Shown here piece by piece: positions 1-39,601 of a stretch of 40,622 bases of DNA (positions are counted from its first letter, which is position 1; each line of letters starts with the position of its first letter). The position numbers and the translations under genes were made by a program. Below the pieces are notes generated by a model, which was given only the letters and a program-made list of their open reading frames with translations, had not been told where the DNA came from and did not search any database. This DNA is from a virus (taxonomy: Duplodnaviria > Heunggongvirae > Uroviricota > Caudoviricetes). The stretch spans positions 1 through 40,622 of the IMG/VR virus record IMGVR_UViG_2671180275_000009; one strand, given 5' to 3'.

Positions 1-1589
1 ATGATGTTAAATGCATGGCACCTGCCGGTGCCCCCATTTGTTAAACAAAGCAAAGATCAACTGCTCATTACACTGTGGCTGACGGGCGAAGACCCACCGC
101 AGCGCATTATGCTGCGTACAGAACACGATAACGAAGAAATGTCAGTATCGATGCATAAGCAGCGCAGTCAGCAGCAGCCTGGCGTCACCGCATGGCGTGC
201 GGCGATTGATCTCTCCAGCGGACAACCCCGGCGGCGTTACAGTTTCAAACTGCTGTGGCACGATCGCCAGCGTTGGTTTACACCGCAGGGCTTCAGCCGA
301 ATGCCGCCGGCACGACTGGAGCAGTTTGCCGTCGATGTACCGGATATCGGCCCACAATGGGCTGCGGATCAGATTTTTTATCAGATCTTCCCTGATCGTT
401 TTGCGCGTAGTCTTCCTCGTGAAGCTGAACAGGATCATGTCTATTACCATCATGCAGCCGGACAAGAGATCATCTTGCGTGACTGGGATGAACCGGTCAC
501 GGCGCAGGCGGGCGGATCAACGTTCTATGGCGGCGATCTGGACGGGATAAGCGAAAAACTGCCGTATCTGAAAAAGCTTGGCGTGACGGCGCTGTATCTC
601 AATCCGGTGTTTAAAGCTCCCAGCGTACATAAATACGATACCGAGGATTATCGCCATGTCGATCCGCAGTTTGGCGGTGATGGGGCGTTGCTGCGCTTAC
701 GCCACAATACGCAGCAGCTGGGAATGCGGCTGGTGCTGGATGGCGTGTTTAACCACAGTGGCGATTCCCATGCCTGGTTTGACAGGCACAATCGTGGCAC
801 GGGGGGAGCTTGTCACAACCCTGAATCGCCCTGGCGCGACTGGTACTCGTTTAGTGATGATGGCACGGCGCTCGACTGGCTTGGCTATGCCAGCTTGCCG
901 AAGCTGGATTATCAGTCGGAAAGTCTGGTGAATGAAATTTATCGCGGGGAAGACAGTATTGTCCGCCATTGGCTGAAAGCGCCGTGGAGTATGGACGGCT
1001 GGCGGCTGGATGTGGTGCATATGCTGGGGGAGGCGGGTGGGGCGCGCAATAATATGCAGCACGTTGCTGGGATCACCGAAGCGGCGAAAGAAACCCAGCC
1101 GGAAGCGTATATTGTCGGCGAACATTTTGGCGATGCACGGCAATGGTTACAGGCCGATGTGGAAGATGCCGCCATGAACTATCGTGGCTTCACATTCCCG
1201 TTGTGGGGATTTCTTGCCAATACCGATATCTCTTACGATCCGCAGCAAATTGATGCCCAAACCTGTATGGCCTGGATGGATAATTACCGCGCAGGGCTTT
1301 CTCATCAACAACAATTACGTATGTTTAATCAGCTCGACAGCCACGATACTGCGCGATTTAAAACGCTGCTCGGTCGGGATATTGCGCGCCTGCCGCTGGC
1401 GGTGGTCTGGCTGTTCACCTGGCCTGGTGTACCGTGCATTTATTACGGTGATGAAGTAGGACTGGATGGCAAAAACGATCCGTTTTGCCGTAAACCGTTC
1501 CCCTGGCAGGTGGAAAAGCAGGATACGGCGTTATTCGCGCTGTACCAGCGAATGATTGCGCTGCGTAAGAAAAGTCAGGCGCTGCGTCG
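1..1589 (+). pseudogene. malZ: Maltodextrin glucosidase MalZ, N-terminal ~529 codons; the frame runs into prophage sequence and stops at 1602
   Basis: Translation matches my recollection of E. coli MalZ N-terminus ([32 protein letters not shown]...); native MalZ is ~604 aa, here the C-terminus is replaced by ...ALRRVTR* from the element end. Confidence 0.85.
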
Positions 1590-1780
1590 TGTAACCAGGT
1601 AAATCATTTGATACCGACAAGGGTTTTAGTGAAAGGAGGTGAAATCACCTGTAAGATACTGAAATAAAACAGGTGATCGATGATTCTGGAGGTTACTTAG
1701 TTTTGATACTGATTAAATAAAATCCGGTATAAAATTAAGGCATCGGCAACAAATTTGATACTGCACATACTGCTTATAGA
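1590..1780 (+). repeat. Prophage left end (attL-like) with three TTTGATAC-containing putative transposase-binding repeats and an 8-bp inverted repeat
   Basis: TTTGATAC at 1607-1614, 1702-1709 and 1754-1761 (spacing 95 and 52 bp, similar to Mu L1/L2/L3 layout); TCACCTGT 1643-1650 and ACAGGTGA 1669-1676. Confidence 0.5.
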
Positions 1781-1895
1781 CGTTTTAAAAAGTACTTAAA
1801 ATGTCTTTCATGCTAAAAAGTTTATATCAATGTCGATCTGGTCACAAATCAAGTTGAAAGTGCTCGCTAAGTGCATAGGACTGGGCTTCATGGGG

Positions 1896-2414
1896 TTACG
1901 CTTTGGCTTCTTTATGGGTTAGATTGAAATGATGATCCTTGGTTTCATCTCCCTCGAAAATCTCTCTAACCTTTTGATCTGATAAATTATTGAGGCTCAA
2001 TGCTGCCAGGCGTCGAATACCTGTTAAAGCGATCAGCTCTTGATTCTCTTGATTGCAGAATTCCAGCAATTTTTCTACCCCTTTCCTTCTCAAGGTGTAA
2101 ATAACTAATTCTTGCTCTTCTTGGTTCAAGGTGTCGATGAGTTCGAGCAACTCGCTATTGCCACCGTTCTTTTTAGGGGCTTGGTGTTTTATTTCTGCAC
2201 TACCTGTAATGATGGAAACTACATGTGCAGGTAAGTCGCTTAAACGGTAGGCAAATGCTCTCCCTCTGATACCGGGTGTAGTTACCGAACGTTTTTCCCA
2301 TCCTTCATTTTTTGCTCGTTTATGAAGCCCAGCCAGAGATGAAGGAAGACCTCCAACCCCCAACAAGTCACTGGCAAGGATCCATTCTTGGTCAAGGATC
2401 ATATCAAACTCCAT
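1896..2414 (-). CDS. c: Mu repressor c-like protein
   Basis: Minus-strand ORF divergent from ner; N-terminal LPSSLAGLHKRAKNEGW motif shared with the N-terminus of the transposase at 2859, as in Mu Repc and MuA. Confidence 0.7.
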   Translation of the reverse strand: MEFDMILDQEWILASDLLGVGGLPSSLAGLHKRAKNEGWEKRSVTTPGIRGRAFAYRLSDLPAHVVSIITGSAEIKHQAPKKNGGNSELLELIDTLNQEEQELVIYTLRRKGVEKLLEFCNQENQELIALTGIRRLAALSLNNLSDQKVREIFEGDETKDHHFNLTHKEAKA

Positions 2415-2632
2415 TTGATATTAACTTTTGTTCATATCTCTTCTGTGGTTTATTTCAAAAATAATCTAATATAAAACAAATAGATATCGAGTAAATCTAA
2501 GGAATTTGAAATTAACCGGTTGATATTTACTTAGTTAATATCTAATATATCAAACATACACTAGTGAGTAACTCAATAGAGTAGCACACATGAGTAATAA
2601 AGTTTGCCATAGAAAGTACACAGGGGGCCATT
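2415..2632. promoter_or_regulatory. c/ner divergent operator-promoter region (candidate operators and transposition enhancer)
   Basis: 218-bp AT-rich intergenic region between divergent c and ner; palindrome AACCGGTT at 2514-2521; repeated ATATCTAATAT-like motifs. Confidence 0.4.
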
Positions 2633-2878
2633 GTGAGTCTTATTGAAGATTGGTCTTCCGCCGATATAAAGGCAGCCTTAGAAAAACGCGATACCAATTT
2701 GTCACGTTTATCAAGGGAAAATAATTTGCAGCCTAGGACTTTGGGTAATGCTTTGCGAGTTCCCTACCCTAAAGGTGAAAAGATTATTGCTAGGGCTATA
2801 GGTGTAGAGCCGCAAGTTATTTGGCCTACTAGATATGAACGACGTGCGCGGAGGAAATATGTGGGTTGCAATGACTGA
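2633..2878 (+). CDS. ner: Ner-like DNA-binding protein (GTG start)
   Basis: 81-aa ORF with ...GEKIIARAIGVEPQVIWPTRY, resembling the Mu Ner C-terminus (...IIANALETKPEVIWPSRY). Confidence 0.8.
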   Translation: MSLIEDWSSADIKAALEKRDTNLSRLSRENNLQPRTLGNALRVPYPKGEKIIARAIGVEPQVIWPTRYERRARRKYVGCND

Positions 2879-4943
2879 ATTGATTTCATTCAGTGACCTA
2901 CCTAGTTCTTTGGCAGGTCTGCACAAAAAAGCAAAGAGGGAGGCGTGGAAAACGCGGCTAAAACCAGGGGTAAAAGGGAAAGTTTTAGAGTGTGAAATAG
3001 GTGCTTTGCCTTTAACTGTTCAGCAGGCAGTACGTGAACGCTACGCCCTGCAACTGATGACGCAAAAAGCCGATGAATCACCGGCTCCGGTGGTGACAAA
3101 GGCCAGACGCTCACCTGCCGTGGTTGATGCGGTGGAGGCATATCGCGGATCACCACAACTGATGGTCGAACGCCTCAATGCCCTGACTGAAAACCAGCGC
3201 CAGGTGGCTGATGCACGAATCGCGATCGTCAGCGAAGTTCTGAAAGTCGCGCAACAACCTGGTTTCAGCTGTGCGAAGGCTATCCGGTTTATCGTTGACA
3301 ACCTGGCACGTTCGCAGCTGGACGAGCGCATTGTGGCAATGGTTGAGACGGCGAACGCCAAAAAGGGAAACAGCCGCGCGTTAAGTGAAATCACGCTGAA
3401 ACGCTGGATTGCGGCCTTTAACAAGGCGCAGAACGCCGCTGAACGCCTGCTTTTACTGGCACCGGGTAAGCGCCAGGAAATAAAAGCCGAAGATATTAAC
3501 TGGCTGCCCGAATTTCTGGCGCAGTATCGCCAGTCAAACGGCCGACCAATGACCGAGGCTTACGAGGATTTTGTCGCTGAATGGCAGCACCGGCACGCTG
3601 ATGAGCCTTATATGCTCGATATCATGCCGTCTTATGACACCATTCGCCGCGCAATGAAGAAACTGCCGGAAGTGGTGAAACAAAAAGGCCGGGTGACCGG
3701 CAGTGAATACCGTCAGCTTGAGGGATTCACGCGCCGCGACTGGTCCAGAATGCCGGTGAATTATGTCTGGATTGGTGACGGTCACGGCATGAAGCTGAAA
3801 TGCAAACACCCGGTTCACGGACGGCCATTTGCACCGGAAGTGACCTTTATTATCGACGGTGGCACACGCTTTGTGGTGGGCTGGAGCATGGACCTGGCTG
3901 AAAATGTTTTCGCCGTAGCCGGTGCCATACAGCACGGCATTCGTCATCACGGCAAACCGTTTCTGTATTACTCGGATAACGGTTCGGGGGAAACCGCCGA
4001 CATCCTGGATAAGGAGGTTGTGGGGATCCTGCCGCGCCTGGGGATTAATCACCCGACAGGGATTGCCGGTAATCCGCAGGGGCGAGGCATTATCGAACGG
4101 CTTAACCGCACATTACCAATGCGCATAGCCCGTAAATACCGCACCTATTTCGGGAAAGGTGCAGATCGCGAAACGTTACGCAAAACCAACCGCGATTTAC
4201 GCTCGGCATTCACTGCCCTGCAACAGGACAAACGGCTGAACGCCCGGCAGCAGTCAGCGATGCGTGATTTACCGTCCTGGCCTGAACTGATTGATGCCAT
4301 CCGTGATGGTGTCGAGTGGTACAACAACCGGCCGCACAGCGGATTGCCGGTGAAACCGAACGGTAAACATTACAGCCCGGCGGAATACAGGAAAAAACGC
4401 CTGGCAGAAGAGGACACGGAAATTGAATGGCTGTCCGATGTTGAGCTGCGGGATATGTTCCGGCCAATGGTGGAACGCCCTGTAAGACGCTGTGAAATAC
4501 GCTGGCTGAATAATATTTACTACGCGCCCGAGCTGCGTGATGAGCATGGCCGCAAGGTGCTTATCAGCTATGACATTCATGATGCCGAACGAATTACCGT
4601 ACGTCGCCTGGATGGCAGCGTGATTTGCGAGGCGGTATGGGACGGTAATAAACGCGAAGCCTTCCCGGTTAGCGCGGAATACTACAAACAGCAGCAACGC
4701 CTTAAAGGCATGCGTAAACGCGCAGAGGAAAAAATCCGTGATGCCGAGGATGAGGTTGTCAACGTGCTGGAGCACAAGCCGCAGGAGCCCTGGCTGGAAA
4801 ACATATACCGCCCTGTGGGTAATACGGTGACCGTTCAGCAACCGGTCGCTGACGATGAACCTGATGAAGAATGCGAGCGTAATTTCCAGCGGGGATTGCA
4901 GCTGCTTGAAGCGAAATTAAAAGAAAATGACCCGCTGGCCTGA
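2859..4943 (+). CDS. A: Mu A-type DDE transposase
   Basis: ~694-aa ORF; N-terminal repressor-like DNA-binding motif (LPSSLAGLHKKAKREAWKTR); position after ner; start 2859 or 2868 uncertain. Confidence 0.9.
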   Translation: MWVAMTELISFSDLPSSLAGLHKKAKREAWKTRLKPGVKGKVLECEIGALPLTVQQAVRERYALQLMTQKADESPAPVVTKARRSPAVVDAVEAYRGSPQLMVERLNALTENQRQVADARIAIVSEVLKVAQQPGFSCAKAIRFIVDNLARSQLDERIVAMVETANAKKGNSRALSEITLKRWIAAFNKAQNAAERLLLLAPGKRQEIKAEDINWLPEFLAQYRQSNGRPMTEAYEDFVAEWQHRHADEPYMLDIMPSYDTIRRAMKKLPEVVKQKGRVTGSEYRQLEGFTRRDWSRMPVNYVWIGDGHGMKLKCKHPVHGRPFAPEVTFIIDGGTRFVVGWSMDLAENVFAVAGAIQHGIRHHGKPFLYYSDNGSGETADILDKEVVGILPRLGINHPTGIAGNPQGRGIIERLNRTLPMRIARKYRTYFGKGADRETLRKTNRDLRSAFTALQQDKRLNARQQSAMRDLPSWPELIDAIRDGVEWYNNRPHSGLPVKPNGKHYSPAEYRKKRLAEEDTEIEWLSDVELRDMFRPMVERPVRRCEIRWLNNIYYAPELRDEHGRKVLISYDIHDAERITVRRLDGSVICEAVWDGNKREAFPVSAEYYKQQQRLKGMRKRAEEKIRDAEDEVVNVLEHKPQEPWLENIYRPVGNTVTVQQPVADDEPDEECERNFQRGLQLLEAKLKENDPLA

Positions 4944-5019: not shown

Positions 5020-5952
5020 ATGACCGATATTAACGATGTAATCAAGACCATTGATGAGCTTATTGATGGCGGCGTACTGACGCAGTATGCCATCGCCAGA
5101 GAGGCGGGAATTTCCGACGGCACATTATCGGCTTTCCGCAAGGGAAAATATAAAGGCGATAACGCTGCTGTGGCTGCTTCCCTGCGCTCCTGGTATGAGA
5201 ACTGGAATAAACAAAGCGCACTGCCCGAGCCGCCGCAGTTTGTGGAAACGCAGACAGTCCAGGAGCTGCGCGCGCTGTTTCAGGCGGTCCGCCTGATGGG
5301 CTGTATTAACGTCATAGTGGGCGTGCCCGGGGTGGGTAAAACGGCCACGGCTCGTAATTACTGTCAGGAACAACCGAACACCTGGATGATCACCCTGTCG
5401 CCCGCGCATTCCAGCGTCACGGAGTGTCTGCTGGAGCTGGCAGAGGAACTGGGGATTGATTACACCCGCGCGAACAAGGGGGCGTTATCCCGCGCCATCC
5501 GCCGTCGCCTGATGGGAACGCGTGGACTGGTGATTGTTGATGAGGCGGATCACCTTGGTATTGACGGTCTGGAACAACTGCGTGCAATCCAGGACGCCAC
5601 GGGGATCGGGATGGTGCTTATTGGTAACCCACGCGGACTGTTTAAGGGTGGACGCCGCGCCGTTGATGATTTATCGCGCCTGTTCAGTCGTCTTGCCCGT
5701 ACAAAACAACTTCGCAAGGCCAAAAAGGCGGATGTGCTGGCCATTGCCAGGGCATGGGGGATTAGTGGTGAGGCCGAGCTGGCTGTCATGCAGGCTATCG
5801 CTGAAAAGCCGGGAGCCTTACGCGTTCTGACACATACGCTTAACCAGGCGTGGATCACCGCCAGCGGTGAAGGCGCGGCGCTGACAGAAAAACATATTAA
5901 TGCGGCCTTTAAAGAGGTTTATACCAACCCTGAATTACTCTCACAGGTGTGA
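5020..5952 (+). CDS. B: Mu B-type transposition ATPase
   Basis: 310-aa ORF with N-terminal HTH-like region and Walker A GVPGVGKT; immediately downstream of A. Confidence 0.85.
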   Translation: MTDINDVIKTIDELIDGGVLTQYAIAREAGISDGTLSAFRKGKYKGDNAAVAASLRSWYENWNKQSALPEPPQFVETQTVQELRALFQAVRLMGCINVIVGVPGVGKTATARNYCQEQPNTWMITLSPAHSSVTECLLELAEELGIDYTRANKGALSRAIRRRLMGTRGLVIVDEADHLGIDGLEQLRAIQDATGIGMVLIGNPRGLFKGGRRAVDDLSRLFSRLARTKQLRKAKKADVLAIARAWGISGEAELAVMQAIAEKPGALRVLTHTLNQAWITASGEGAALTEKHINAAFKEVYTNPELLSQV

Positions 5953-6176
5953 TTATGGCTGCATTTAATATTCCTGATATTTACGGACGCTTTTACCTGG
6001 TGAATTTCGATAACGTGAAAGTGATTTCACTGGCCGAAAATAAAGAATGTGGTGATTTACTTTTTGAATTTAATGACCGCACACGAATGGTGATATCTGC
6101 CGGACTTGATCGCGAAGGTGCGACAGACGTTTACAGCGGAATATGCCGTTCTGTTGGTGCAAAACAAGTCAGCTAA
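5949..6176 (+). CDS. Hypothetical early protein (75 aa)
   Basis: ORF overlapping B stop (ATGA-type coupling); no recognisable motif. Confidence 0.45.
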   Translation: MIMAAFNIPDIYGRFYLVNFDNVKVISLAENKECGDLLFEFNDRTRMVISAGLDREGATDVYSGICRSVGAKQVS

Positions 6177-6188
6177 ATGAGGTGTTAT

Positions 6189-6443
6189 ATGAATATGCAA
6201 TCCTGCGGTAACAAAATGAATTTATTCGACTCCCTGAACAGCGCGCGTCGTCTGACCGAACTTGCCGGTGCGGTACTGGAGCGCAGCAAACGCTACCCAC
6301 AACGTTATGCCCTGAAAACCACGCCGCCGGTAAACGAAGTTAAGGGAACCGGTGAAATTGAAATCACTGTTCAGACCAATGGCCTGCGCCGCCGTGTAAA
6401 AGCCACCCGCATAAGCGGCTGCACGGTTTACTGGGAAGTATGA
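6189..6443 (+). CDS. Hypothetical early protein
   Basis: ORF with GAGGTG Shine-Dalgarno before ATG 6189 (track start 6177). Confidence 0.45.
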   Translation: MNMQSCGNKMNLFDSLNSARRLTELAGAVLERSKRYPQRYALKTTPPVNEVKGTGEIEITVQTNGLRRRVKATRISGCTVYWEV

Positions 6444-6790
6444 AGTTGCTTCATGGTTCGACTCTGTCATCAGGTCAGACGCCGGGGCAGTTATCCAAAC
6501 AGAACGAGGACCAGAGGGTGAGTAAAGTCGTACGCATTATTTTCGAATACAAGGAGCACGTTATCCATAAAAACGCGGATGGAACAGTGCGCATGGGGGT
6601 AAGTCTGGACATACGTTCAACCGGGATAAAGCAGAAAGGTGATGGACCTGCCATGATTTTTGGGGTGGTTATGCTCGCGGAAAGCAGAGACTTTGCTGAA
6701 CTTGTGGCAATGAAAGCCAGTGCGCTCATGAAAGATATGAACATGAGTTCCGGGGTTATTAAAGGTAATGAATTTAATCAGCAGGGGTAA
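6440..6790 (+). CDS. Hypothetical early protein, paralogue 1 of a tandem pair (alternative GTG start at 6518)
   Basis: Contains SKVVRIIFEYKEHVIHKNADG, similar to the start of the next ORF; GAGGA RBS 7 nt before GTG 6518. Confidence 0.5.
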   Translation: MKLLHGSTLSSGQTPGQLSKQNEDQRVSKVVRIIFEYKEHVIHKNADGTVRMGVSLDIRSTGIKQKGDGPAMIFGVVMLAESRDFAELVAMKASALMKDMNMSSGVIKGNEFNQQG

Positions 6791-6794
6791 TTCC

Positions 6795-7088
6795 ATGAGC
6801 AAAGTACGCGTTATTTTTGAATTTGAGCATGTTTCGCATGACGAAAAATCGGCAGGCAATGACAGTGTTGAAGTGCATGAAAAGATTGGAGTAGATGTGA
6901 AAACAGAACGTGATACGGATAACAGGCCGACGTCACTCTGTGACGTTTATGCAAGCATTCTCCAGTATCACAGTCCTGTAATTATTCAGTTTCTCTCAGC
7001 GGAATTTCAGGCATCTGTACAGGCTTTTGGGGCGGATGCCATCATTAAACGCCACCGTGTGCATAAAGCATCAGGCACACTGCAATAA
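6795..7088 (+). CDS. Hypothetical early protein, paralogue 2 of a tandem pair
   Basis: Starts MSKVRVIFEFEHVSHDEKSAGND, paralogous to the preceding ORF; RBS before ATG 6795. Confidence 0.55.
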   Translation: MSKVRVIFEFEHVSHDEKSAGNDSVEVHEKIGVDVKTERDTDNRPTSLCDVYASILQYHSPVIIQFLSAEFQASVQAFGADAIIKRHRVHKASGTLQ

Positions 7089-7098
7089 GGAAAACAAA

Positions 7099-7629
7099 AT
7101 GGTTAAACGTGTTACAAAATTAAAGGCCGCAGCCGAGGCTGCACCGCAGACCCGCGAAGAAGTCAGCCGCGATATCCGAACCCTGGGCGATATTCAGCGA
7201 GAGGCGCTGCGCCTGGAAACGGCAATGAATGATGAAGTGGCAGAAATCACCGCCCGTTATACGCCGCAGATTGAAAACCTTAAAAAAGAAATCAAAGTGC
7301 TTTTTAAAGGGATTCATGACTGGTGTAAAACCAACCGCAATGAGCTGACGAACGGCGGCGAAACCAAAACTGCCAATCTGACCACCGGAACGGTGTCATG
7401 GCGGCTGGGAAATCCATCATGCAGCGTCAGTCGTGATGTGGAGGGTGTGATTGAAATGCTGCGTCGTATGGGGCTTGAGCGCTTCATCCGCACGAAAGAG
7501 GAAGTGAATAAGCAAGCTGTCCTGGCAGAGCCGGATGCGGTGAAAGGGATTGCTGGTATTAAGGTGAATAAAGGCGCTGAAAGTTTTCATGTCGAGCCTT
7601 TTGAACAGGACGCCGGACTGAATAAATAA
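7099..7629 (+). CDS. gam: Gam-like host-nuclease inhibitor (Ku-like DNA end-binding protein)
   Basis: Strong similarity to my recollection of Mu Gam (..LGDIQREALRLETAMNDEVAEIT..NRNELTNGGETKTANLTTGTVSWR..LERFIRTKEEVNKQA..); AAGGA RBS before ATG 7099. Confidence 0.85.
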   Translation: MVKRVTKLKAAAEAAPQTREEVSRDIRTLGDIQREALRLETAMNDEVAEITARYTPQIENLKKEIKVLFKGIHDWCKTNRNELTNGGETKTANLTTGTVSWRLGNPSCSVSRDVEGVIEMLRRMGLERFIRTKEEVNKQAVLAEPDAVKGIAGIKVNKGAESFHVEPFEQDAGLNK

Positions 7630-7713
7630 CACCGCATTAAATCTTTAAATATCACATCGTTTTAATTATGGCGCTCGCGTCAGGGGACTGCTCGCGCCTG
7701 AATGAGGCATGTC

Positions 7714-8292
7714 ATGAGTATTAAATATCGTTATTTTAAAATGAATGAGAGCGATTCCCGTCATTATCACAGGGAATGGCTTGATTGTGTTGGCAGGGAG
7801 CGCCAGAAATTGATTGATGATTTTCTCAGTAATCAGAATGCCAGAGGGTATTGTTGTTCCTGGTATTGTGGGGATTTTTTTGTCAAATCAATACTGGTGC
7901 ATGAGGATGTTGATGTCGGAAGAAATAAACGGGTGTTGTCTGATAAATTTGATGAAGATGGCCGTACTTTATTTTCAGTTAAGCCCGACCGCAGATTCAG
8001 AGAGGGAAAAAAACTGAACAAAGCACTGAATATCTTAAACGAGAAGTTAAAACAGCTTCCGTCATTCAGTACCTGGATGGTTAATAAACTGGACTGCTAT
8101 TTTGAGGTTTTTGGTGTCAGCAACGGCCGCACAGTTATGGCGTGCTCTTCTGCCGGGTTCTATGGCGACAAAGGGGCTGTTGTGGTTCGTATTCCTGTCG
8201 GTGAATCAGATAATGCCTTTTCACCTGAAAAGCTGCATCCGTCATTGATGGCAATCAAGCATTCCGAATTCATCGCAATAACGGAGGAATAA
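7714..8292 (+). CDS. Hypothetical protein encoded in an AT-rich segment (candidate moron)
   Basis: ORF with visibly lower GC than flanking phage genes; no recognisable family. Confidence 0.5.
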   Translation: MSIKYRYFKMNESDSRHYHREWLDCVGRERQKLIDDFLSNQNARGYCCSWYCGDFFVKSILVHEDVDVGRNKRVLSDKFDEDGRTLFSVKPDRRFREGKKLNKALNILNEKLKQLPSFSTWMVNKLDCYFEVFGVSNGRTVMACSSAGFYGDKGAVVVRIPVGESDNAFSPEKLHPSLMAIKHSEFIAITEE

Positions 8293-8295
8293 TTC

Positions 8296-8829
8296 ATGAT
8301 TGATGCAAAAGTGCTTGAAGGGGTTAAAAGCTGGCTGCGTTTTTCTGGCCGTCTGACCAGTCGTTCTCTGGCAGAAAAAATGAATATGCCGCTATCCTCC
8401 ATGGTTTATTTTCTGCGTGATGCGGTCGATGCCGGTGTGCTGACGGACCGTAACGGTTTTTATGATATTCCGCGTCCCCGCCCGGTGCAGCCGGTTCGTC
8501 GCAAATGCAGCCAGGAGTCTGCGGCTGATGATGTTCAGTGGTGCAGCTTCAGAAAATCCCTGCCGTGGATTGAAGGGCATGATATTCCGTCGATGGCGTG
8601 GGAATTTGCTCAGGGCGTTCTGACCTGTGAAACCGTTTATGTGGTGGCTGAAGTTGATGAGCAGGCCATGAAAGAAGGCGTGCCCCAGTTTGTGATGGCG
8701 TATATCGACATTCGCCTGGGTGTCATTATCTGCGGTTTAAGCGGCTGGAATATCACCGCGCGTGTTCTGCGTTACCTGATTGTTGACCGGACGGCCGCGC
8801 CTGCCGGGATATCTGCGGAGGTGGCGTAA
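8296..8829 (+). CDS. Hypothetical protein, possible N-terminal winged-helix
   Basis: 177-aa ORF tightly packed after the previous gene. Confidence 0.5.
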   Translation: MIDAKVLEGVKSWLRFSGRLTSRSLAEKMNMPLSSMVYFLRDAVDAGVLTDRNGFYDIPRPRPVQPVRRKCSQESAADDVQWCSFRKSLPWIEGHDIPSMAWEFAQGVLTCETVYVVAEVDEQAMKEGVPQFVMAYIDIRLGVIICGLSGWNITARVLRYLIVDRTAAPAGISAEVA

Positions 8830-9344
8830 TGTTCTTTAAAACATCAAACCCTGCCGCGCTGGCTGCGTGGCAAAAATACCAGCAGGACTACAAGAAAGTT
8901 AAGGATGAGGCAAAACGTCTTGAGGCCGTGCTGAATGTTGCGTGCCGGTCGGTATTTGTATCCGGTATCAATGGTTTTTATTTTAAGGGACTGCGTTTTA
9001 CGGATGACAAATATCCTTTTCATCGAGACTTATGGCGAAAACCGACTGCGTCGAATGGCTGGAGCTGCACGCCGCGCACATCGTGTATTCCCAAAGCCCT
9101 GCGCTCTGCCTCTGACGAACTTAACAGTCTGTGGCGTGAATATTCGCCCGTCACGTATGCCAGAACCGATGCGCTGTTGTTCTGGCTGGGCATTGACTTC
9201 TCAGCAATATTGCATGGTCCCGTGAAGTGGTTCTGCGTTGACGATGTGATTTACCTTGAGTGTGGCGTAAAACCCGCAAAACAGAAAATGACCGAAATTC
9301 TGTCTGATGAGTTTTATGCTGCTGAAAAGCGAGTCAGGGGGTGA
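8829..9344 (+). CDS. Hypothetical early protein
   Basis: 171-aa ORF, start overlaps previous stop. Confidence 0.5.
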   Translation: MFFKTSNPAALAAWQKYQQDYKKVKDEAKRLEAVLNVACRSVFVSGINGFYFKGLRFTDDKYPFHRDLWRKPTASNGWSCTPRTSCIPKALRSASDELNSLWREYSPVTYARTDALLFWLGIDFSAILHGPVKWFCVDDVIYLECGVKPAKQKMTEILSDEFYAAEKRVRG

Positions 9345-9347
9345 TGC

Positions 9348-9899
9348 ATGATGAAATTACAACCCATGGGACGAAAAGGTCGGGCACCCGCTCATGTCCG
9401 CGCATGGACACCTGAAGAAGATGCGCTGCTGATTGCGCTTTATTCGTCCACCCCGGTTAAGGATATTGCTGTCAGAGTAAAAAGAAGTTACTGGGGAGTA
9501 TATAACCGGATTATTTTATTACGCGGTATTTACCCGCAGTTGCTCAAATGCAAACGTCCCAGATTTAAACCTGATGAAGATAAATTTATCCGAAAAAATG
9601 CCAGGACGATGACCGGTAAGCAAATAGGAGAATATCTGGGGCGAGACCGGGATTCTGTCCACAATCGGGCGCGATATATTGCCGTAAGCATGAAAAAATA
9701 CGGAGAATTGCTGCCTTTTACCCGCATACCTGACGATGATGTTCATCTTATTCGTAAATTACGGGATGCAGAGTCGCCACGACGTCTTACCTTCCGGGAA
9801 ATTGGCGAGAAATTTGAATTATCCGAGGGCACGGTGAGTTTTATTTATCACCGTCGCCGGACTGCCGAAGATGTTGTATTACGGGAGTTAATGCCATGA
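9348..9899 (+). CDS. Hypothetical DNA-binding protein with three HTH-like repeats
   Basis: Three internal segments of similar design (WTPEEDALLIALY..., FKPDEDKFIRKNA..., DDDVHLIRKLRD...LTFREIGEKFELSEGTVSFIYHRRR). Confidence 0.45.
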   Translation: MMKLQPMGRKGRAPAHVRAWTPEEDALLIALYSSTPVKDIAVRVKRSYWGVYNRIILLRGIYPQLLKCKRPRFKPDEDKFIRKNARTMTGKQIGEYLGRDRDSVHNRARYIAVSMKKYGELLPFTRIPDDDVHLIRKLRDAESPRRLTFREIGEKFELSEGTVSFIYHRRRTAEDVVLRELMP

Positions 9900-10228: not shown

Positions 10229-10361
10229 TCAAATAGTTGAATGTCCCACCTGTGGAAATGAAGCCCCGGAGTATCTGAAAGAGTGCCCACATTGTGGTGA
10301 GGTAAAATGTAATCACTGCGATATGGGCGACGACACTGCATGTATGAATTGTGAGGATTAA
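10221..10361 (+). CDS. Small zinc-ribbon protein (46 aa), absent from the ORF track
   Basis: MDDQIVECPTCGNEAPEYLKECPHCGEVKCNHCDMGDDTACMNCED; four CxxC pairs; AGGAG RBS 7 nt upstream of ATG 10221. Confidence 0.45.
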   Translation: MDDQIVECPTCGNEAPEYLKECPHCGEVKCNHCDMGDDTACMNCED

Positions 10362-10365
10362 TAAT

Positions 10366-10653
10366 ATGGAAAAAGAAATCAAATTTGCGCCTAAAGATAT
10401 CGACGAAGAACTGGCTAAAATCGGCATGCTTGAGCGTATGCGGGACATTATCGAATATGCGATAAAAGAAAATCTTGCAGCCAGAGAAGCCCTTTTGATA
10501 ATGGAGCGGGAGATTAACCTGATTAAGGATGCTGTATCTCTGGATAATAAAATAGCCCGCGAGGAATACGTTCGCCGCAGGCTCGGTGTTGATGGTTCAG
10601 CAATTCTTACATCTGAACATTATGCAAAAATCTTTAATCTTTTTTCGCGGTAA
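10366..10653 (+). CDS. Hypothetical early protein
   Basis: ORF starting MEKEIKF with GAGGA RBS (track start 10351 is a GTG extension). Confidence 0.45.
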   Translation: MEKEIKFAPKDIDEELAKIGMLERMRDIIEYAIKENLAAREALLIMEREINLIKDAVSLDNKIAREEYVRRRLGVDGSAILTSEHYAKIFNLFSR

Positions 10654-10873
10654 TGCCCATGCAGGCCCGGAGATTGTCGAAATGCCAGTTTGTATTAATA
10701 TATGAGCCATCCTGGTGTCCCTCTGCGCTTTGGGGTGCGGCACTTTTTTGAGCAATATTGATAATATGTGTTGCCTCCTCACGGGAAATAACCCCCTTAT
10801 CGAACAGGGTTACCATAAGATTTCCAGCCATTGTGAATGCGGCAACATCAAGGGCATTTTTTATATCTGACAT
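10634..10873 (-). CDS. Hypothetical protein on the opposite strand within the early region
   Basis: 79-aa minus-strand ORF with AAGGA RBS 7 nt before its ATG; convergent with and overlapping the 3' end of the previous plus-strand ORF. Confidence 0.45.
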   Translation of the reverse strand: MSDIKNALDVAAFTMAGNLMVTLFDKGVISREEATHIINIAQKSAAPQSAEGHQDGSYINTNWHFDNLRACMGITAKKD

Positions 10874-10901
10874 AGATTTTTCCTTTTATGTTAATTGACA
10901 T

Positions 10902-10943: not shown

Positions 10944-11456
10944 ATGAATCGCGCTTCCCTGATTACCTTAATACATGTCGCAAAACGCGATCTACAGCTT
11001 GACCGGGAGACCTATATATCCGCGCTGCTGGCAGCCACCGGCAAAACCAGCTGCCGGGATATGTCACCGGATGAGTTGTCCCGCGTGCTGGATGTTTTCA
11101 AAAAACGCGGTTTTAAAGTGCGTCAGAACCCGGTTAACCGGGCCTTAAAACCGGGTACGGTGACCGCTAAAATTCGCGCCATCTGGAAGGTGATGCACCG
11201 GCAGGGCTTTATCTCTGATGGTGCGGAAACCGCCCTTAACCGCTGGGTGAAATCGCAGACGGCCGCGCAAAACGGCGGCGAAGGTGTGGCAAACTGGCAG
11301 TGGCTGGAGCAACACCCCGCCCTGGCCTCAGATGTGCTGGAGCGTCTCAAGCGATGGCACCGCCGCAAAATGCTGGCCGCGATGGGAATGCCCGAACGCA
11401 CGCTGATGGGGTATGACGCCGTTTGCAGGCAGTATGAAAAATCACTTCCCCGTTAA
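10944..11456 (+). CDS. gemA: GemA-like protein (Mu gp16 family)
   Basis: 170-aa ORF in the position of Mu gemA; conserved-looking basic, Trp-containing C-terminal region. Confidence 0.65.
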   Translation: MNRASLITLIHVAKRDLQLDRETYISALLAATGKTSCRDMSPDELSRVLDVFKKRGFKVRQNPVNRALKPGTVTAKIRAIWKVMHRQGFISDGAETALNRWVKSQTAAQNGGEGVANWQWLEQHPALASDVLERLKRWHRRKMLAAMGMPERTLMGYDAVCRQYEKSLPR

Positions 11457-34383: not shown

Positions 34384-34406
34384 AAGGGTGCGATAAGCAC
34401 CCTTTA
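34384..34406. terminator. Hairpin between convergent S and tail fibre assembly genes (candidate bidirectional terminator)
   Basis: AAAGGGTGC / GCACCCTTT 9-bp stem with GATAA loop. Confidence 0.45.
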
Positions 34407-34408
34407 CG

Positions 34409-34951
34409 TTATTCAGGCTTCTCCGGCCATTTAATGTCGTCAAATTCAGCTTTGTTTTTAATCGCTGGTAGTTCCATTTTTTTCACCTGACTGATGTATG
34501 CCATCCATCGGGTAAGTGCGGCTCTGTCTTCATCACTGATGGTGCCCAGCTGTAATTCTGTTCTCCAGTCATTAATTTTTTCATATGCCTGATTAAGATA
34601 TGACTGGCGCATTGCTTCCAGTTTTCTTGCGTAGTTAACCGGAATACGGGAGATCACGCCATTATCAAACTTCCAGTTACCCGAAATATCAGCACCTTCA
34701 GGGAGTTCGTCGACTTCAACCACAGAGAACCCCGCAGGATACAGCGCCGAAGCGTCCTGTGATATTGAGCAGATAATGCCGCTGTCAGGTGTTATACAAA
34801 GTTTATATTTTTTTGTGAATAATGGCAGGGACTCGTAGAAATCCTTACCATCTTCACTCTGAAAATACTGTACATCATTACCATAGAGGGTGTTTTCCGG
34901 GTAATATCGTTTAACATTAATCAGTTGCATAAACATCACCATGTGAATCAA
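34409..34951 (-). CDS. Tail fibre assembly protein (Tfa / Mu U family)
   Basis: 180-aa ORF ending ...FDDIKWPEKPE, typical C-terminus of phage tail fibre assembly chaperones. Confidence 0.75.
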   Translation of the reverse strand: MIHMVMFMQLINVKRYYPENTLYGNDVQYFQSEDGKDFYESLPLFTKKYKLCITPDSGIICSISQDASALYPAGFSVVEVDELPEGADISGNWKFDNGVISRIPVNYARKLEAMRQSYLNQAYEKINDWRTELQLGTISDEDRAALTRWMAYISQVKKMELPAIKNKAEFDDIKWPEKPE

Positions 34952-35050
34952 TGATAAAAACAGGAATAATACTATCGCTATATACGGACAGGGGTTGTCT
35001 GAGATAACGCATATATCAGGCGCTGCCTGCCGTACGCCATGAGCCGTTAA

Positions 35051-35422
35051 TTAAATACTTGCAGCGGATACCCAATTCCCATTAATACAATATTGTATCT
35101 GTCTGTAATAAACACGGTCATCACCACCACGCATTTCCCAGTCTCCGTCAGTCTTAAAACCGGTAATCACATTTCCTGATGACAGGGAGTAATTATATTC
35201 CAGTACGCCGCTTAATGCCTGCGCTCCCAGTCTTACCCCTGTAACATAACGCTGATTGGCCGTTGATTCCGGCATTCCTGACGTAATGTTTATATCCCGC
35301 GTCCCGTCGAAAGGAACACCATTAATATTTCTTGGGGTGGCGAGTCTGTTTGCTGCCACGGCGGTTCCCCCCGATGGCAGGGCATCAGCGGCCTTATTTA
35401 CCGTTTCCCGTAAACCGAGGTT
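35051..35422 (-). CDS. Alternative tail fibre C-terminal exon with no start of its own
   Basis: Reading frame opens immediately after a TGA inside the right gix-like site and encodes NLGLRETVNKAADALPSGGTAVAANRLATPRNINGVPFDGTRDINITSGM..., homologous to S residues from the crossover point. Confidence 0.65.
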   Translation of the reverse strand, partial: NLGLRETVNKAADALPSGGTAVAANRLATPRNINGVPFDGTRDINITSGMPESTANQRYVTGVRLGAQALSGVLEYNYSLSSGNVITGFKTDGDWEMRGGDDRVYYRQIQYCINGNWVSAASI

Positions 35423-35484: not shown

Positions 35485-36045
35485 ATGCTGATTGGCTATA
35501 TACGCGTATCAACAAATGACCAGAACACAGGTTTACAAAGAAATGCGCTGGAATGTGCAGGATGTGAGCAGATTTTTGAAGACAAAATGAGTGGTAAAAC
35601 GACGCAGCGGCCGGGACTGAAGCGGGCACTGAAGAAACTAAAACCCGGCGACACACTGATGGTCTGGAAACTGGACAGGCTGGGGCGCAGTATGCGCCAC
35701 CTTGTTGCGCTGACAGATGAATTACAGCAACAGGGGATAAATTTTCGTAGTCTTACTGACAACATTGATACGTCAACCCCCATGGGGCGCTTCTTTTTTC
35801 ACATAATGGGTGCGCTGGCAGAAATGGAGCGTGAATTGATTGTCGAACGGACACGGGCTGGTCTTGCTGCTGCCCGTGAAAGGGGACGAACCGGCGGCAG
35901 ACCCCGTCGTCTCACGCAGGAACAATACGAGCAGGTCGGGCGTTTACTGGCCGGGGGTGTCAGCCGAAGACAGGTGGCACTTATTTTTGATATCGGCCTT
36001 TCAACCCTTTATCGTTATTATCCTGCGAGCGTTTCGGAAAAATAA
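35485..36045 (+). CDS. gin: Gin/Hin/Cin-family serine DNA invertase
   Basis: 186-aa ORF starting MLIGYIRVSTNDQNTGLQRNAL (catalytic Ser motif) with C-terminal HTH; adjacent to invertible segment. Confidence 0.85.
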   Translation: MLIGYIRVSTNDQNTGLQRNALECAGCEQIFEDKMSGKTTQRPGLKRALKKLKPGDTLMVWKLDRLGRSMRHLVALTDELQQQGINFRSLTDNIDTSTPMGRFFFHIMGALAEMERELIVERTRAGLAAARERGRTGGRPRRLTQEQYEQVGRLLAGGVSRRQVALIFDIGLSTLYRYYPASVSEK

Positions 36046-36144: not shown

Positions 36145-38184
36145 ATGACGTCCAAATGGGTTCAACTATCATCAATGCCCGGAAACTTTACTGTTAAAGT
36201 TTCCGGTGGTACAGCGGCATTTCTTGAGGCTCCCTTTCCTCCGGCCGAAACAAAAGGAGGAATGACATTTGCTGACTGTCTCATCAGTTTTAATACACGG
36301 GATTGCCTGTGGGTAAGGCCAGTATCCGGTGATCCGAGCGTGGAAATTACCGGTGCGGGTATTGGTGCTGTCATTCCGTTAAGTGCTGATGTTGCCGGTA
36401 CTGCTGAACCGTCAGACTGGGATAATGCTGAAACACATACCCGTCCGTCAGGAAATGAAACTGCTTCCAGCTCCCCTTCCTGGTATTACGTGGTGGTTCT
36501 TGCTGGTCAGTCAAACGGGATGGCCTACGGTGAAGGTCTGCCGCTGCCGGAGACATATGACCGCCCCGAACCGCGTATTATGCAGTTAGCCCGTCGCAGT
36601 ACAGTCACGCCGGGAGGTAAAGCCTGTCAGTATAACGACATCATTCTGGCCGACCACTGTCTGCATGATGTGCAGGATATGAGTGGAAAAAATCACCCGA
36701 AAGCGGATGTGGCTAAAGGGCAATATGGCACCGTGGGTCAGGGGCTTCACATTGCCAAAAAACTGCTGCCGTTTATTCCGGCAGATGCGGGGATTCTGCT
36801 GGTTCCCTGCTGCCGTGGTGGTTCTGCATTCACGGCGGGTGCTGACGGCACGTACAGTGACAGCACGGGTGCTTCAGAGGACTCAGCCCGCTGGGGTGTG
36901 GATAAGCCGCTGTATAAGGACTTAATCAGCCGGACAAAAGCGGCACTGGCGAAGAACCCGAAAAACCGCCTGCTTGCTGTGGTGTGGATGCAGGGCGAGT
37001 TTGATATTGATGCGAAGCCGACGGAGCATTCCGCGCTGTTTCTGGCGATGGTGGAAAAATTCCGCGCAGACCTGGCTGAACAGGCGGAACAGTGTACCGG
37101 TGGCAGTGCTGCTGGCGTTCCGTGGATTTGTGGCGATACCACGTATTTCTGGAAACAGAAAAACGAACAGGCATACCAGGCAATCTATGACGGCTACAAA
37201 AATAAAACAGATAAAAACATTCATTTCGTCCCATTAATGACAGATGAAAATGGCGCGAATGTACCCACCAACAATCCGACAGAAGACCCGGATATTGAAT
37301 CCATTGGTTATTACGGCTCAACGTGGCGTAACAGTGCCGCCACCTGGACATCTGCGGGCCGGGCCAGCCATTTCAGTTCATGGGCACGTCGTGGGATTAT
37401 TTCCGACCGTCTGGCCACGGCTGTTCTGACTCATGCAGGGCGAACCACAGTAAAAGCCGATGTTCCATCTTCTGAAACTGAAGCACCAGTGCCGTCACCT
37501 TCAGAAACTGAAGCAGTAACCACAACACTGCTGTCTTACCGTGTCAGTGAGTCAGAAGGAAATCTGAAAGCCCAGGGCTGGGAGCCGGCTGGCGGTAAAG
37601 CTGAAATTATCAGTGATGCAGGAGGCACAGGTGGTAAGGCAATGAAACTGACCAAGGAAACAGGTAAATCATCCTGGTATCTGGATCATGATGCCGGTAC
37701 TGGTGCTGAACTGCTGAAAAATGGTGGTTTAATCAGTTGTCGTTTTAAAGTACCTGGCGACCTGGTGGCAAACCAGTATGTCATGGCGCTTTACTGGCCG
37801 GTTTCCTCTCTGCCGCAGGGTGTCACCCTGACAGGGGATGCAGGGAATAATCTGCTGGCATCGTTCTACATCCAGACAGACGCAAAAGACCTGAATGTGA
37901 TGCACCACAATGCAAAAGTGGCAACAAATAACCAGAAACTGGGAACCTTTGGTGTATTTGATAATGAATGGCATACGCTGGCCTTCCGTTTTGCAGGAAA
38001 TAACAGCCTTCAGGTTATTCCGGTTATTGATGGTCAGGATGGTGCCGCGTTTACCCTGACGCAGTCACCAGTAGGAACTTTCCCGGTGGACAAACTCCGC
38101 GTAACGGATATCACCAAAAATGCAACTTACCCGGTGCTGATTGACAGCATTGTGGTGGAAGTGAAAAAAGCGGTAACAGAATAA
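36145..38184 (+). CDS. Putative carbohydrate O-acetylesterase (SGNH/SASA family, NanS-like) with additional N- and C-terminal domains
   Basis: 679-aa ORF with YYVVVLAGQSNGMAYGEG (GQSN active-site motif of sialate O-acetylesterase-type hydrolases); GATAAT -10-like element upstream. Confidence 0.55.
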   Translation: MTSKWVQLSSMPGNFTVKVSGGTAAFLEAPFPPAETKGGMTFADCLISFNTRDCLWVRPVSGDPSVEITGAGIGAVIPLSADVAGTAEPSDWDNAETHTRPSGNETASSSPSWYYVVVLAGQSNGMAYGEGLPLPETYDRPEPRIMQLARRSTVTPGGKACQYNDIILADHCLHDVQDMSGKNHPKADVAKGQYGTVGQGLHIAKKLLPFIPADAGILLVPCCRGGSAFTAGADGTYSDSTGASEDSARWGVDKPLYKDLISRTKAALAKNPKNRLLAVVWMQGEFDIDAKPTEHSALFLAMVEKFRADLAEQAEQCTGGSAAGVPWICGDTTYFWKQKNEQAYQAIYDGYKNKTDKNIHFVPLMTDENGANVPTNNPTEDPDIESIGYYGSTWRNSAATWTSAGRASHFSSWARRGIISDRLATAVLTHAGRTTVKADVPSSETEAPVPSPSETEAVTTTLLSYRVSESEGNLKAQGWEPAGGKAEIISDAGGTGGKAMKLTKETGKSSWYLDHDAGTGAELLKNGGLISCRFKVPGDLVANQYVMALYWPVSSLPQGVTLTGDAGNNLLASFYIQTDAKDLNVMHHNAKVATNNQKLGTFGVFDNEWHTLAFRFAGNNSLQVIPVIDGQDGAAFTLTQSPVGTFPVDKLRVTDITKNATYPVLIDSIVVEVKKAVTE

Positions 38185-38551: not shown

Positions 38552-38797
38552 ATGCCAGAGATTAAAGGCACGGTTACTGAAGAGCTTGTCAAACAGGCAC
38601 TTTATTCTGAAGAAGTGAACCGCGTGCTGAAGGCGCAGGTTCGCAAGGATTTTGAGGCACAAATCGACGCATATGTTGATGAAGTGCTGGCCCGAATGGT
38701 TGGCCGTTCTCCGGCTGAAAACAGCACGGAAAATGCTCCTCAACCCGTAGAGCAACCAGAGCCGGTTCAGCCCGGAACTGACGGTACTATGATGTAA
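38552..38797 (+). CDS. Hypothetical protein (81 aa)
   Basis: AAGGAG RBS 8 nt upstream of ATG. Confidence 0.45.
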   Translation: MPEIKGTVTEELVKQALYSEEVNRVLKAQVRKDFEAQIDAYVDEVLARMVGRSPAENSTENAPQPVEQPEPVQPGTDGTMM

Positions 38798-39229
38798 CAA
38801 TACCGACCTGCAGGTTTCCCTGCCGGGTGAATTTGTTAATGCACGTTTTGTGTATTTTCCCTCTGGGGAGAACAGGCAGGGCATATCAGCATCCTGAAAC
38901 AGGAAGCATTTTTTGGTTTGTATGTCTTGCCATTTTGAGATCGAGAACGGCGATAGATGAGCTGTAAGGGAGTCTTACAGGCAGGGTAAACAGGCTCTTT
39001 ATCCATGATAAAGATCTCCTTTTTATGCATCTCTGCTTTACAGGAGACCGGGGAATATCATAGGATACGCCACGAGCTCGAAGTAAAGCATTGATGCAAA
39101 ATTGTCTAAATCGGCCCAGAATAGTTCGCGCTATCTGGGTCGCCCTTTATGTATGTAGTATCCCATTGATTTGAAACATACTACATATACGCACAATCCT
39201 ACCTTCACTGTATAAAAAGTCAATAAAAT

Positions 39230-39368
39230 GATCATTTTATGATCGTTTTCACCACCTAACTCTTCGTTTTCTTTAAGTAAGTAATCACCGCCCTGAATCA
39301 TTGTTGATGACTTTTCAATCTATTTGTTGTATCAATTAAACAAACCGAATCGATCGTTTTTGTCGATC
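39230..39368. promoter_or_regulatory. GATC-rich region upstream of com (candidate Dam-methylation-sensitive regulatory region, by analogy with Mu mom)
   Basis: GATC at 39230, 39241, 39352 and 39365 within 140 bp of AT-rich intergenic DNA. Confidence 0.4.
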
Positions 39369-39415
39369 GATTGCATGAGAAAGGCATCAACAACAAAGCA
39401 GGAGGTTATGCGGCC

Positions 39416-39601
39416 ATGTATCGAAACATACGGTGCCGACACTGCAATAAGCTACTGGCACGGGCCAGTTTCAGTTATCTGGAAGTAAAATGTCCGCGCT
39501 GCAAAACCCTCAATCAAATCACATCTCAGAGCGCCACAGAGCACCCCACATACACAAGGAAATCCTGCCGTGGGGAACAAGAAACATTACTTTCAGTCTG
39601 A
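39416..39601 (+). CDS. com: Com-like zinc-finger translational activator
   Basis: MYRNIRCRHCNKLLARASFSYLEVKCPRCK closely resembles my recollection of Mu Com (IRCKNCNKLL...IEIRCPRCK); GGAGG RBS; 3' end overlaps the next gene. Confidence 0.8.
   Translation: MYRNIRCRHCNKLLARASFSYLEVKCPRCKTLNQITSQSATEHPTYTRKSCRGEQETLLSV

Follow-up and report, generated by a model that had tools for sequence, protein, structure and literature searches.

What is the gene that separates the gam and gp11 homologues of a Mu-like prophage of E. coli, how did it come to lie there and what might it do? The window analysed here, a stretch of 40,622 nucleotides, is a Mu-like prophage with a DUF5420 gene at this position in its early region. 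The initial annotation had taken the segment 7630–8292 as an AT-rich insertion that carries a 193-aa gene downstream of gam, had proposed that it is a horizontally acquired moron and had suspected a terminator or operator in a GC-rich palindrome ahead of the gene. We re-examined each of these points together with the family membership, predicted structure, selection and population distribution of the gene.

Gene call and prophage setting

The listed open reading frame covers positions 7702–8292 of the plus strand and corresponds to 196 aa. ATG 7714 is the preferred start because of the spacing of the GAGG sequence upstream of it, because RefSeq annotates the gene of a near-identical prophage from this codon and because the N-termini of the family members line up at this codon. 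The gene encodes a soluble protein of 192 aa, which with the stop makes 193 codons, so that the 193-aa gene reported downstream of gam is retained essentially as described. Only 3 nt separate its stop codon (TAA, 8290–8292) from the ATG of the gp11 homologue, which is found directly 3′ of the DUF5420 gene in every Mu-like locus examined. The Gam-family protein encoded upstream shares 54% amino-acid identity with Mu Gam. The coordinates of all features are collected in Table 1.

Table 1. Features of the prophage and of the region between the gam and gp11 homologues.
Feature	Position	Strand	Remarks
Host alpha-amylase-family gene	1–1602		Abuts the left end of the prophage
Mu c-type repressor	1896–2414	−	
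Mu-type transposase	2835–4943		
MuB-like ATPase	5020–5952		
gam homologue, Mu Gam-family host-nuclease inhibitor, 176 aa	7099–7629	+	Phage_Mu_Gam E = 2e-39; phrog_491 E = 1e-66
Conserved non-coding backbone block, outside the variable segment	7630–7701	+	Common to allele-a, allele-b and gene-less prophages, Mu, SfMu and Tongde
Imperfect inverted repeat GGCGC...GCGCC, GGCGCTCGCGTCAGGGGACTGCTCGCGCC	7670–7698	+	5-bp outer stem, without T-run
Shine–Dalgarno sequence GAGG for ATG 7714	7705–7708	+	Sequence reading; 5 nt upstream of the ATG
CDS, DUF5420/PHROG 2260/EaC-family protein, rare allele a	7714–8292	+	PF17457, phrog_2260, dN/dS, AF2
Hypervariable patch GYCCSWYCGDFFV, codons 41–58	7834–7887	+	End of helix 1 and β2–β3 hairpin
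Motif P-x-x-R-x-K-x-G-K (here PDRRFREGK), codons 91–99	7984–8010	+	N-terminus of helix 2
C-terminal motif IKHSEFIAITEE-COOH, codons 181–192	8254–8289	+	88-member alignment
gp11 ribosome-binding site GGAGG	8283–8287	+	Sequence reading; inside the last codons of the DUF5420 gene
Mu gp11 homologue, 177 aa	8296–8829	+	Gp11_C E = 5e-40; phrog_1949 E = 2e-99
GemA	10944–11456		
Gin-type invertase	35485–36045		

From the positions of the repressor and amylase genes, the insertion site of the prophage is placed just downstream of the amylase gene. Directly after the Gin-like invertase, positions 36145–38184 encode a protein of 679 aa in which a SASA (sialate O-acetylesterase-type) domain is combined with DUF6645; the gene appears to be NanS-p-type cargo at the right end of this prophage. 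An ORF for a C-5 cytosine DNA methylase (39759–40622) is cut by the end of the window and is preceded by a low-GC patch (38750–39730). Further polymorphic slots are seen in the semi-essential region (5952–7088 and 9348–9899; loci L001–L004, L011 and L017–L019). The alleles of a 106-aa gene (6768–7088) are ∼62% identical and those of a 183-aa HTH gene (9348–9899) are ∼72% identical, and the gene content of the stretch from MuB to a 116-aa gene varies among close prophages.

Base composition

The GC content of the DUF5420 ORF is 41.8%, compared with 52.1% for gam and gp11 together (z = −4.0, p = 6e-5), and the earlier impression that the segment is AT-richer than its surroundings is thereby borne out by calculation over GC windows. 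The same is seen at third codon positions, where the ORF has 42.5% GC and the flanks have 53.2% (p = 0.016). Ranked against windows of its own size (579 bp), the ORF is among the lowest 1.8% in the early region, 3.4% in the prophage and 4% in the whole window, and none of the same-size windows in the late region is as AT-rich. Other low-GC patches are located at 1400–3080, 10300–10900, 34400–35300 and 38750–39730. The compositional oddity of the gene is moderate. Homologues that occupy the same slot in other Mu-like phages have a GC content of 46–48%, compared with 49–55% for their flanks. Because these homologues are also AT-richer than their flanks, low GC is a trait of the slot occupants in general, of which the version in the window (allele a) is the extreme case.

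A member of the EaC family

The protein matches PF17457 (DUF5420) over residues 48–189 of 192 with a score of 52 bits (gathering cutoff 26; E = 1e-13) and phrog_2260 over 192/192 profile positions (E = 7e-40). It is a further member of the already known DUF5420/PHROG 2260 (EaC) family. Both EaC of Salmonella phage P22 (3.8e-71), from the ea region of its PL operon, and allele b, a second E. coli version of the gene (1.4e-71), match phrog_2260, and an hhalign comparison of the 88-member family profile with P22 EaC gives a probability of 99.8% (E = 2e-29) over 191 columns. This end-to-end alignment, together with the presence of EaC and allele b in PHROG 2260, identifies DUF5420/PHROG 2260 as the EaC family. 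PF17457 is matched by 75 of the 88 collected relatives; allele b and P22 EaC escape detection by Pfam but lie within PHROG 2260.

Exhaustive searching of 1.84 billion cluster representatives with a profile (E ≤ 1e-3) yielded only 89 relatives, nearly all of them single-domain proteins of about 170–210 aa. Allele a forms a divergent AT-rich branch, and its nearest relatives outside E. coli are 45–52% identical (Salmonella/Citrobacter Mu-like prophages). Family members are found in phages of Proteobacteria and Desulfobacterota and in an Izemoplasma genome, in each case within a prophage or an early region. Members in Vibrio phages, annotated as `EaC', are found in early clusters, a Desulfobotulus prophage member adjoins an AlpA-like regulator and an integrase, and the Izemoplasma prophage member adjoins a Cro/CI-type regulator. 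BLASTP comparison among the downstream ORFs revealed no conserved downstream partner outside the Mu-like phages.

The conserved positions are Tyr7, Phe8, Phe118, Gly148 and Pro161 together with the motif at codons 91–99, and the window protein contains all of the family motifs listed. Tyr7, Gly98 and Pro161 are the most conserved residues among the 88 members, followed by Gly148 and Lys99. Within the codon 91–99 motif, conservation amounts to 74% for Pro91, 61% for Arg94, 68% for Lys96, 98% for Gly98 and 80% for Lys99; the window protein has an arginine at position 96, where the family usually has a lysine. The C-terminus is an IK[KH]SEF[IV]A[LI]TEE-like tail in 59 of the 88 members, including members from non-Mu phages, and an ITYGQFYD variant in 16 others as well as in P22 EaC, which was compared separately from the alignment. 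As the tail is kept where no gp11 lies downstream, it is a feature of the protein and not merely a by-product of the ribosome-binding site. No invariant acidic/histidine constellation is present across the family alignment. The isoelectric point is 8.5 for the window protein, with a family median of ∼7, and the protein is therefore not an acidic DNA mimic.

Like the window gene, eaC of P22 is an early-operon gene that lies among accessory genes downstream of anti-RecBCD/recombination genes. The two differ in that eaC adjoins xis and int in a lambdoid phage, while the window gene follows gam in a transposable phage. P22 EaC is also only ∼17% identical to the profile consensus and ends in an ITYGQFYD-type C-terminus instead of IKHSEFIAITEE. 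A full-text literature search for DUF5420, PF17457 and phrog_2260 returned no match, and no function is assigned to P22 EaC in the papers that name it. A prophage carrying an eaC–eaE deletion has been reported to yield no viable phage, but this deletion spans many genes.

Three states of one slot

We surveyed 5,426 complete E. coli genomes using gam plus the conserved block as the query. The combination was found at 274 places in 232 genomes, many of these prophage copies belonging to Shiga-toxin-producing E. coli, and three slot states account for all of them (11 + 244 + 19 = 274). Allele a occurs at 11 places in nine genomes (4% of copies). Allele b, which encodes 180 aa, is found at 244 places in 214 genomes (89%), while a gene-less junction with a 14-codon ORF, MKYVYIVINNVVGK, occurs at 19 places in 15 genomes (7%).

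Alleles a and b align collinearly over their whole length with ∼25% amino-acid identity (BLASTP E = 9e-10), and the Gam and gp11 proteins beside them are 96–98% identical. When the window is aligned with four close E. coli prophages, the identity is ∼95% across gam and positions 7630–7701, collapses at ∼7702 and is regained in the last few codons and the GGAGG at 8283–8287. These sharp boundaries identify the gene itself as the variable unit. Positions 7630–7701, counted as part of the AT-rich segment in the initial annotation, belong to the conserved backbone block, so that the variable segment begins at ∼7702. The content of the slot is exchanged by recombination in its conserved flanks, which are the left-hand non-coding block and, on the right-hand side, the conserved C-terminal codons with the gp11 ribosome-binding site. 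Comparison with individual loci gives opposite contrasts in synonymous divergence: relative to L014 the cassette has a dS of 0.06 and the flanks 0.18–0.21, while relative to L004 the cassette has 0.09 and the flanks 0.016. The histories of cassette and flanks are therefore decoupled.

In phage Mu there is no gene between gam (Mup10) and gp11 (Mup11): the same non-coding block follows gam and is itself followed by gp11. The slot is filled by a family member in SfMu, Yersinia phage Tongde, Haemophilus SuMu and a Mannheimia phage. A locus search of IMG/VR with a 20-sequence subset of the family alignment recovered 26 contigs, and every Mu-like contig among them has a family member directly upstream of gp11. 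The SfMu protein (SfMu gp11) and allele b (from E. coli Sp18-type prophages) resemble allele a in lying in the slot between gam and the Mu gp11 homologue and in belonging to the same length class. Both are collinear with it from the N-terminal YFK motif to the C-terminal IKHSE[FY][IV]A[IL]TEE, but share only 24–30% amino-acid identity with it and have a higher GC content (46–48%).

Some variation is also seen on the gam side of the slot. No Gam homologue was detected in the Salmonella/Citrobacter-type Mu-like contigs L021–L027. In L022, the contig of this group that was examined, the slot ahead of the DUF5420 gene is taken by an unrelated protein of 212 aa (phrog_846), and in L020 an NTP-pyrophosphohydrolase-like gene (192 aa) sits between gam and the DUF5420 gene. 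We considered whether the upstream genes of L020 and L022 are tandem paralogues, and rejected this because the 192-aa protein is NTP-PPase-like and the 212-aa protein belongs to phrog_846, neither being a family member.

The gene-less junctions contain what look like traces of the gene. The 14-codon ORF of E. coli has a b-like 5′ leader and a family-like N-terminus (MKYVY...), and its 3′ end aligns with the end of the gene. In Mu, the sequence ...ACTGAGGAATAA ahead of gp11 resembles the terminal TEE-stop codons of the DUF5420 gene. This is suggestive, although not conclusive, of gene-less states that arose by deletion and retain remnants of the gene ends.

The locus is best described as a resident slot in which recombination in the conserved flanks swaps the occupant and deletion occasionally removes it, rather than as the site of a one-off foreign insertion. 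The insertion proposed in the initial annotation holds in so far as the content of the slot varies and Mu lacks the gene, but not in that homologues of the same family occupy the slot and the gene-less states look like deletions. Recent foreign acquisition is contradicted by the homologues that fill the same slot in SfMu, Tongde, the Haemophilus and Mannheimia phages and the IMG/VR contigs. That the gene is not universal among Mu-like relatives is evident from Mu, from the gene-less copies and from the predominance of a ∼25% identical allele. The initial annotation was to be given up if the composition did not differ and the gene was universal; as it is not universal and its composition differs, the annotation is not refuted on this ground.

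The non-coding block after gam

The block 7630–7701 shares 80–82% nucleotide identity with Mu and SfMu, compared with 66–70% for the flanking gam and gp11 coding sequences. The GC content over positions 7630–7713 is 47.6%. A GC-rich palindrome had been placed at 7662–7692; an inverted repeat does exist, but it is imperfect and lies at 7670–7698. The predicted fold of positions 7625–7725 has a minimum free energy of −21.9 kcal/mol, which corresponds to z = −0.6 relative to shuffled sequences, and substitutions in relatives disrupt stem pairs of the repeat without compensation. The suggestion that the palindrome is a terminator fails on the missing T-run and on this z-score, and the terminator scan makes no call there. 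We rejected a terminator or operator on these grounds and also because the repeat is kept in gene-less Mu and the substitutions break its stem. The repeat is a backbone element that lies outside the cassette and is shared with gene-less Mu.

A consensus scan of the plus strand from 6900 to 9000, restricted to σ70 for promoters, found neither a σ70-like promoter nor an intrinsic terminator. No Rfam match was obtained in 7400–8500. A conserved small peptide encoded in the block 7630–7701 was also considered and was discarded because the window and Mu differ there by a 1-nt indel that throws the reading frame out of register.

Predicted structure and selection

An AlphaFold2 model based on the alignment of 88 sequences has a pLDDT of 94 and a pTM of 0.86. 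The chain runs through a strand, a long helix, four strands, two helices, five strands and a terminal helix. The codon 91–99 motif is modelled as a strand followed by a basic loop that contains the Gly-Lys pair and then by a helix. The model has no significant structural similarity to any PDB chain, including characterised anti-defence proteins, and at the sequence level likewise no similarity to the anti-defence proteins characterised in the PDB was found. The combination of an ART fold with the R, S-T-S and E-x-E motifs that would assign the protein to the C3-like mono-ADP-ribosyltransferases was not observed. Searches of the PADLOC-DB defence models with allele a, allele b and the SfMu homologue gave no match at E ≤ 1, and an NCBIfam search gave no match.

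Among the allele-a copies, the DUF5420 gene has a dN/dS of 0.33, and the values for gam and gp11 are 0.11 and 0.18, respectively. The gene is thus real and is maintained by purifying selection, although less stringently than its neighbours. Ten of the 24 residues that vary among the 11 allele-a copies fall within codons 41–60, all ten of them at 41–58 (binomial p = 7e-5). The ratio of replacement to silent changes is 10:3 in this patch and 14:19 elsewhere (Fisher p = 0.05). Much of the patch is due to a variant that L004 and L019 have in common, so that a single tract of recombination might account for it. At positions 13, 47 and 48, however, several independent states are seen among the allele-a copies. 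Codons 46–54 (7849–7875) of allele a encode a cysteine- and aromatic-rich hairpin, YCCSWYCGD. Conservation in the family does not extend to its cysteines, which vary (C/R/S/L, C/Y and Y/C) among the allele-a copies.

Expression and proposed function

The early operon of Mu is silent in the lysogen and active during lytic growth. Given that no promoter or terminator consensus of its own was found and that the gene overlaps the ribosome-binding site of gp11, the DUF5420 gene is expected to be co-transcribed with the early operon. From its sequence context it reads as an early-operon (Pe-type) gene rather than as a classical moron, and its protein would be produced only in lytic development, alongside Gam.

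We tentatively propose that the early protein acts non-enzymatically by binding to a factor of the host, which is probably a component of immunity; at present this is a possible role and no firm assignment. Early expression beside an anti-nuclease gene, the lack of an enzymatic signature, a compact new fold and the replacement or loss of alleles favour a protein that would act as a stoichiometric binder and would neutralise or redirect its target. A binder rather than an enzyme is also suggested by the family alignment, in which an invariant acidic/histidine constellation is missing. The most likely target would be a component of a strain-variable anti-phage immune system. Specificity for this target would be set by the fast-evolving N-terminal half, in particular by hairpin residues 41–58, while a common core function would be provided by the basic P-x-x-R-x-K-x-G-K loop and the C-terminal ...SEFIAITEE tail.

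The presence/absence polymorphism, the ∼25% identical alleles on 96–98% identical backbones and the clustered replacements resemble the signature of an arms race and suggest an anti-defence role. In this respect the slot is similar to known accessory slots for counter-defence such as that of Mu gnarl2, where a fast-evolving gene in a fixed position of the early operon is present, absent or replaced. Mu E6/Mup07 (gnarl2), from the same semi-essential region, has been reported as a host-modifying accessory gene (bioRxiv 10.1101/2023.04.06.535777). Against this stands the overall dN/dS below 1. Fast evolution and presence/absence also fit a dispensable, weakly constrained gene, and the conserved basic loop could bind nucleic acid instead.

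Alternative explanations

The last of these points leads to an accessory factor of DNA metabolism, in which the basic loop would bind DNA ends, DNA or nucleotides and the protein would aid or modulate end protection, recombination or transposition beside Gam, or beside Abc/Erf in P22. In most Mu-like loci the gene indeed comes immediately after gam, P22 eaC shares the PL operon with erf, abc1 and abc2, and the member in Vibrio phage H188 follows genes for a Cas4-like exonuclease, a helicase and an RNaseH-like protein. The strand, basic Gly-Lys loop and helix of the conserved motif would suit such a role, as would the isoelectric points (median of ∼7 in the family and 8.5 here), which do not fit a DNA mimic. 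We nevertheless consider it unlikely. Mu replicates without the gene and 7% of the E. coli copies have lost it, Salmonella-type relatives keep it where another protein replaces gam, and its neighbours outside the Mu-like phages are inconsistent. Core partners, moreover, rarely tolerate ∼25% identical alleles on identical backbones, and no structural match to a nucleic-acid-binding fold rises above noise.

The moron of the initial annotation would be a recent foreign gene with signals of its own that is expressed from the prophage and protects the host by superinfection exclusion or abortive infection. Two of its hallmarks are present: the gene lies between genes that are adjacent in relatives (Mu and the 19 E. 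coli copies), with a gene-less state that is fairly common, and its GC and GC3 are below those of the flanks (41.8% against 52.1% for GC). The third, a promoter and terminator of its own, was not found on the plus strand of 6900–9000 in the consensus scan, and the upstream repeat is a backbone element of gene-less Mu and no terminator. The ATG of gp11 follows the stop after 3 nt and its ribosome-binding site is overlapped, which reads as a repressed early operon, and PADLOC gives no match. Homologues that fill the slot and are likewise AT-richer than their flanks, together with end remnants at gene-less sites that look like deletions, speak for ancestral residence, exchange and loss. A classical moron is thus a very improbable description, even though its positional and compositional aspects are retained.

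We give equally little credence to a dispensable filler, that is a weakly constrained passenger that has no specific target and plays only a positional role through the ribosome-binding site and translational coupling to gp11. Loss without replacement in Mu and in 19 of the 274 E. coli copies, remnants that keep the context of the gp11 ribosome-binding site and a dN/dS above that of the neighbours are what such a passenger would show. A dN/dS of 0.33 is still purifying selection, however, the fold is confidently predicted from co-variation, and conservation of the motifs extends across phyla and, for the C-terminal tail, to phages without a downstream gp11.

Implications

Returning to an immune target, the wider proposal is that DUF5420/EaC is a widespread and structurally new class of counter-defence proteins, of which the divergent slot alleles would each disarm a different immune system, perhaps a sensor of Gam or of linear DNA ends. 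We put this forward as a doubtful extension that goes beyond the single gene. What the present analysis adds is the link to P22 EaC, a sharply bounded polymorphism of three states and the finding that the fold has no structural analogue. For annotators, the locus illustrates that composition correctly flagged an accessory gene, yet `recent insertion with its own terminator' was the wrong explanation.

For screens of counter-defence activity the gene offers a well-defined candidate, and the three slot states (a, b and empty) on the same backbone, spread over 274 copies, constitute a natural experiment. If the proposal is true, the content of the slot would help to decide which E. coli strains are permissive for each prophage, and P22 EaC would receive its first function. 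Any function found would annotate family members in phages of several bacterial phyla.
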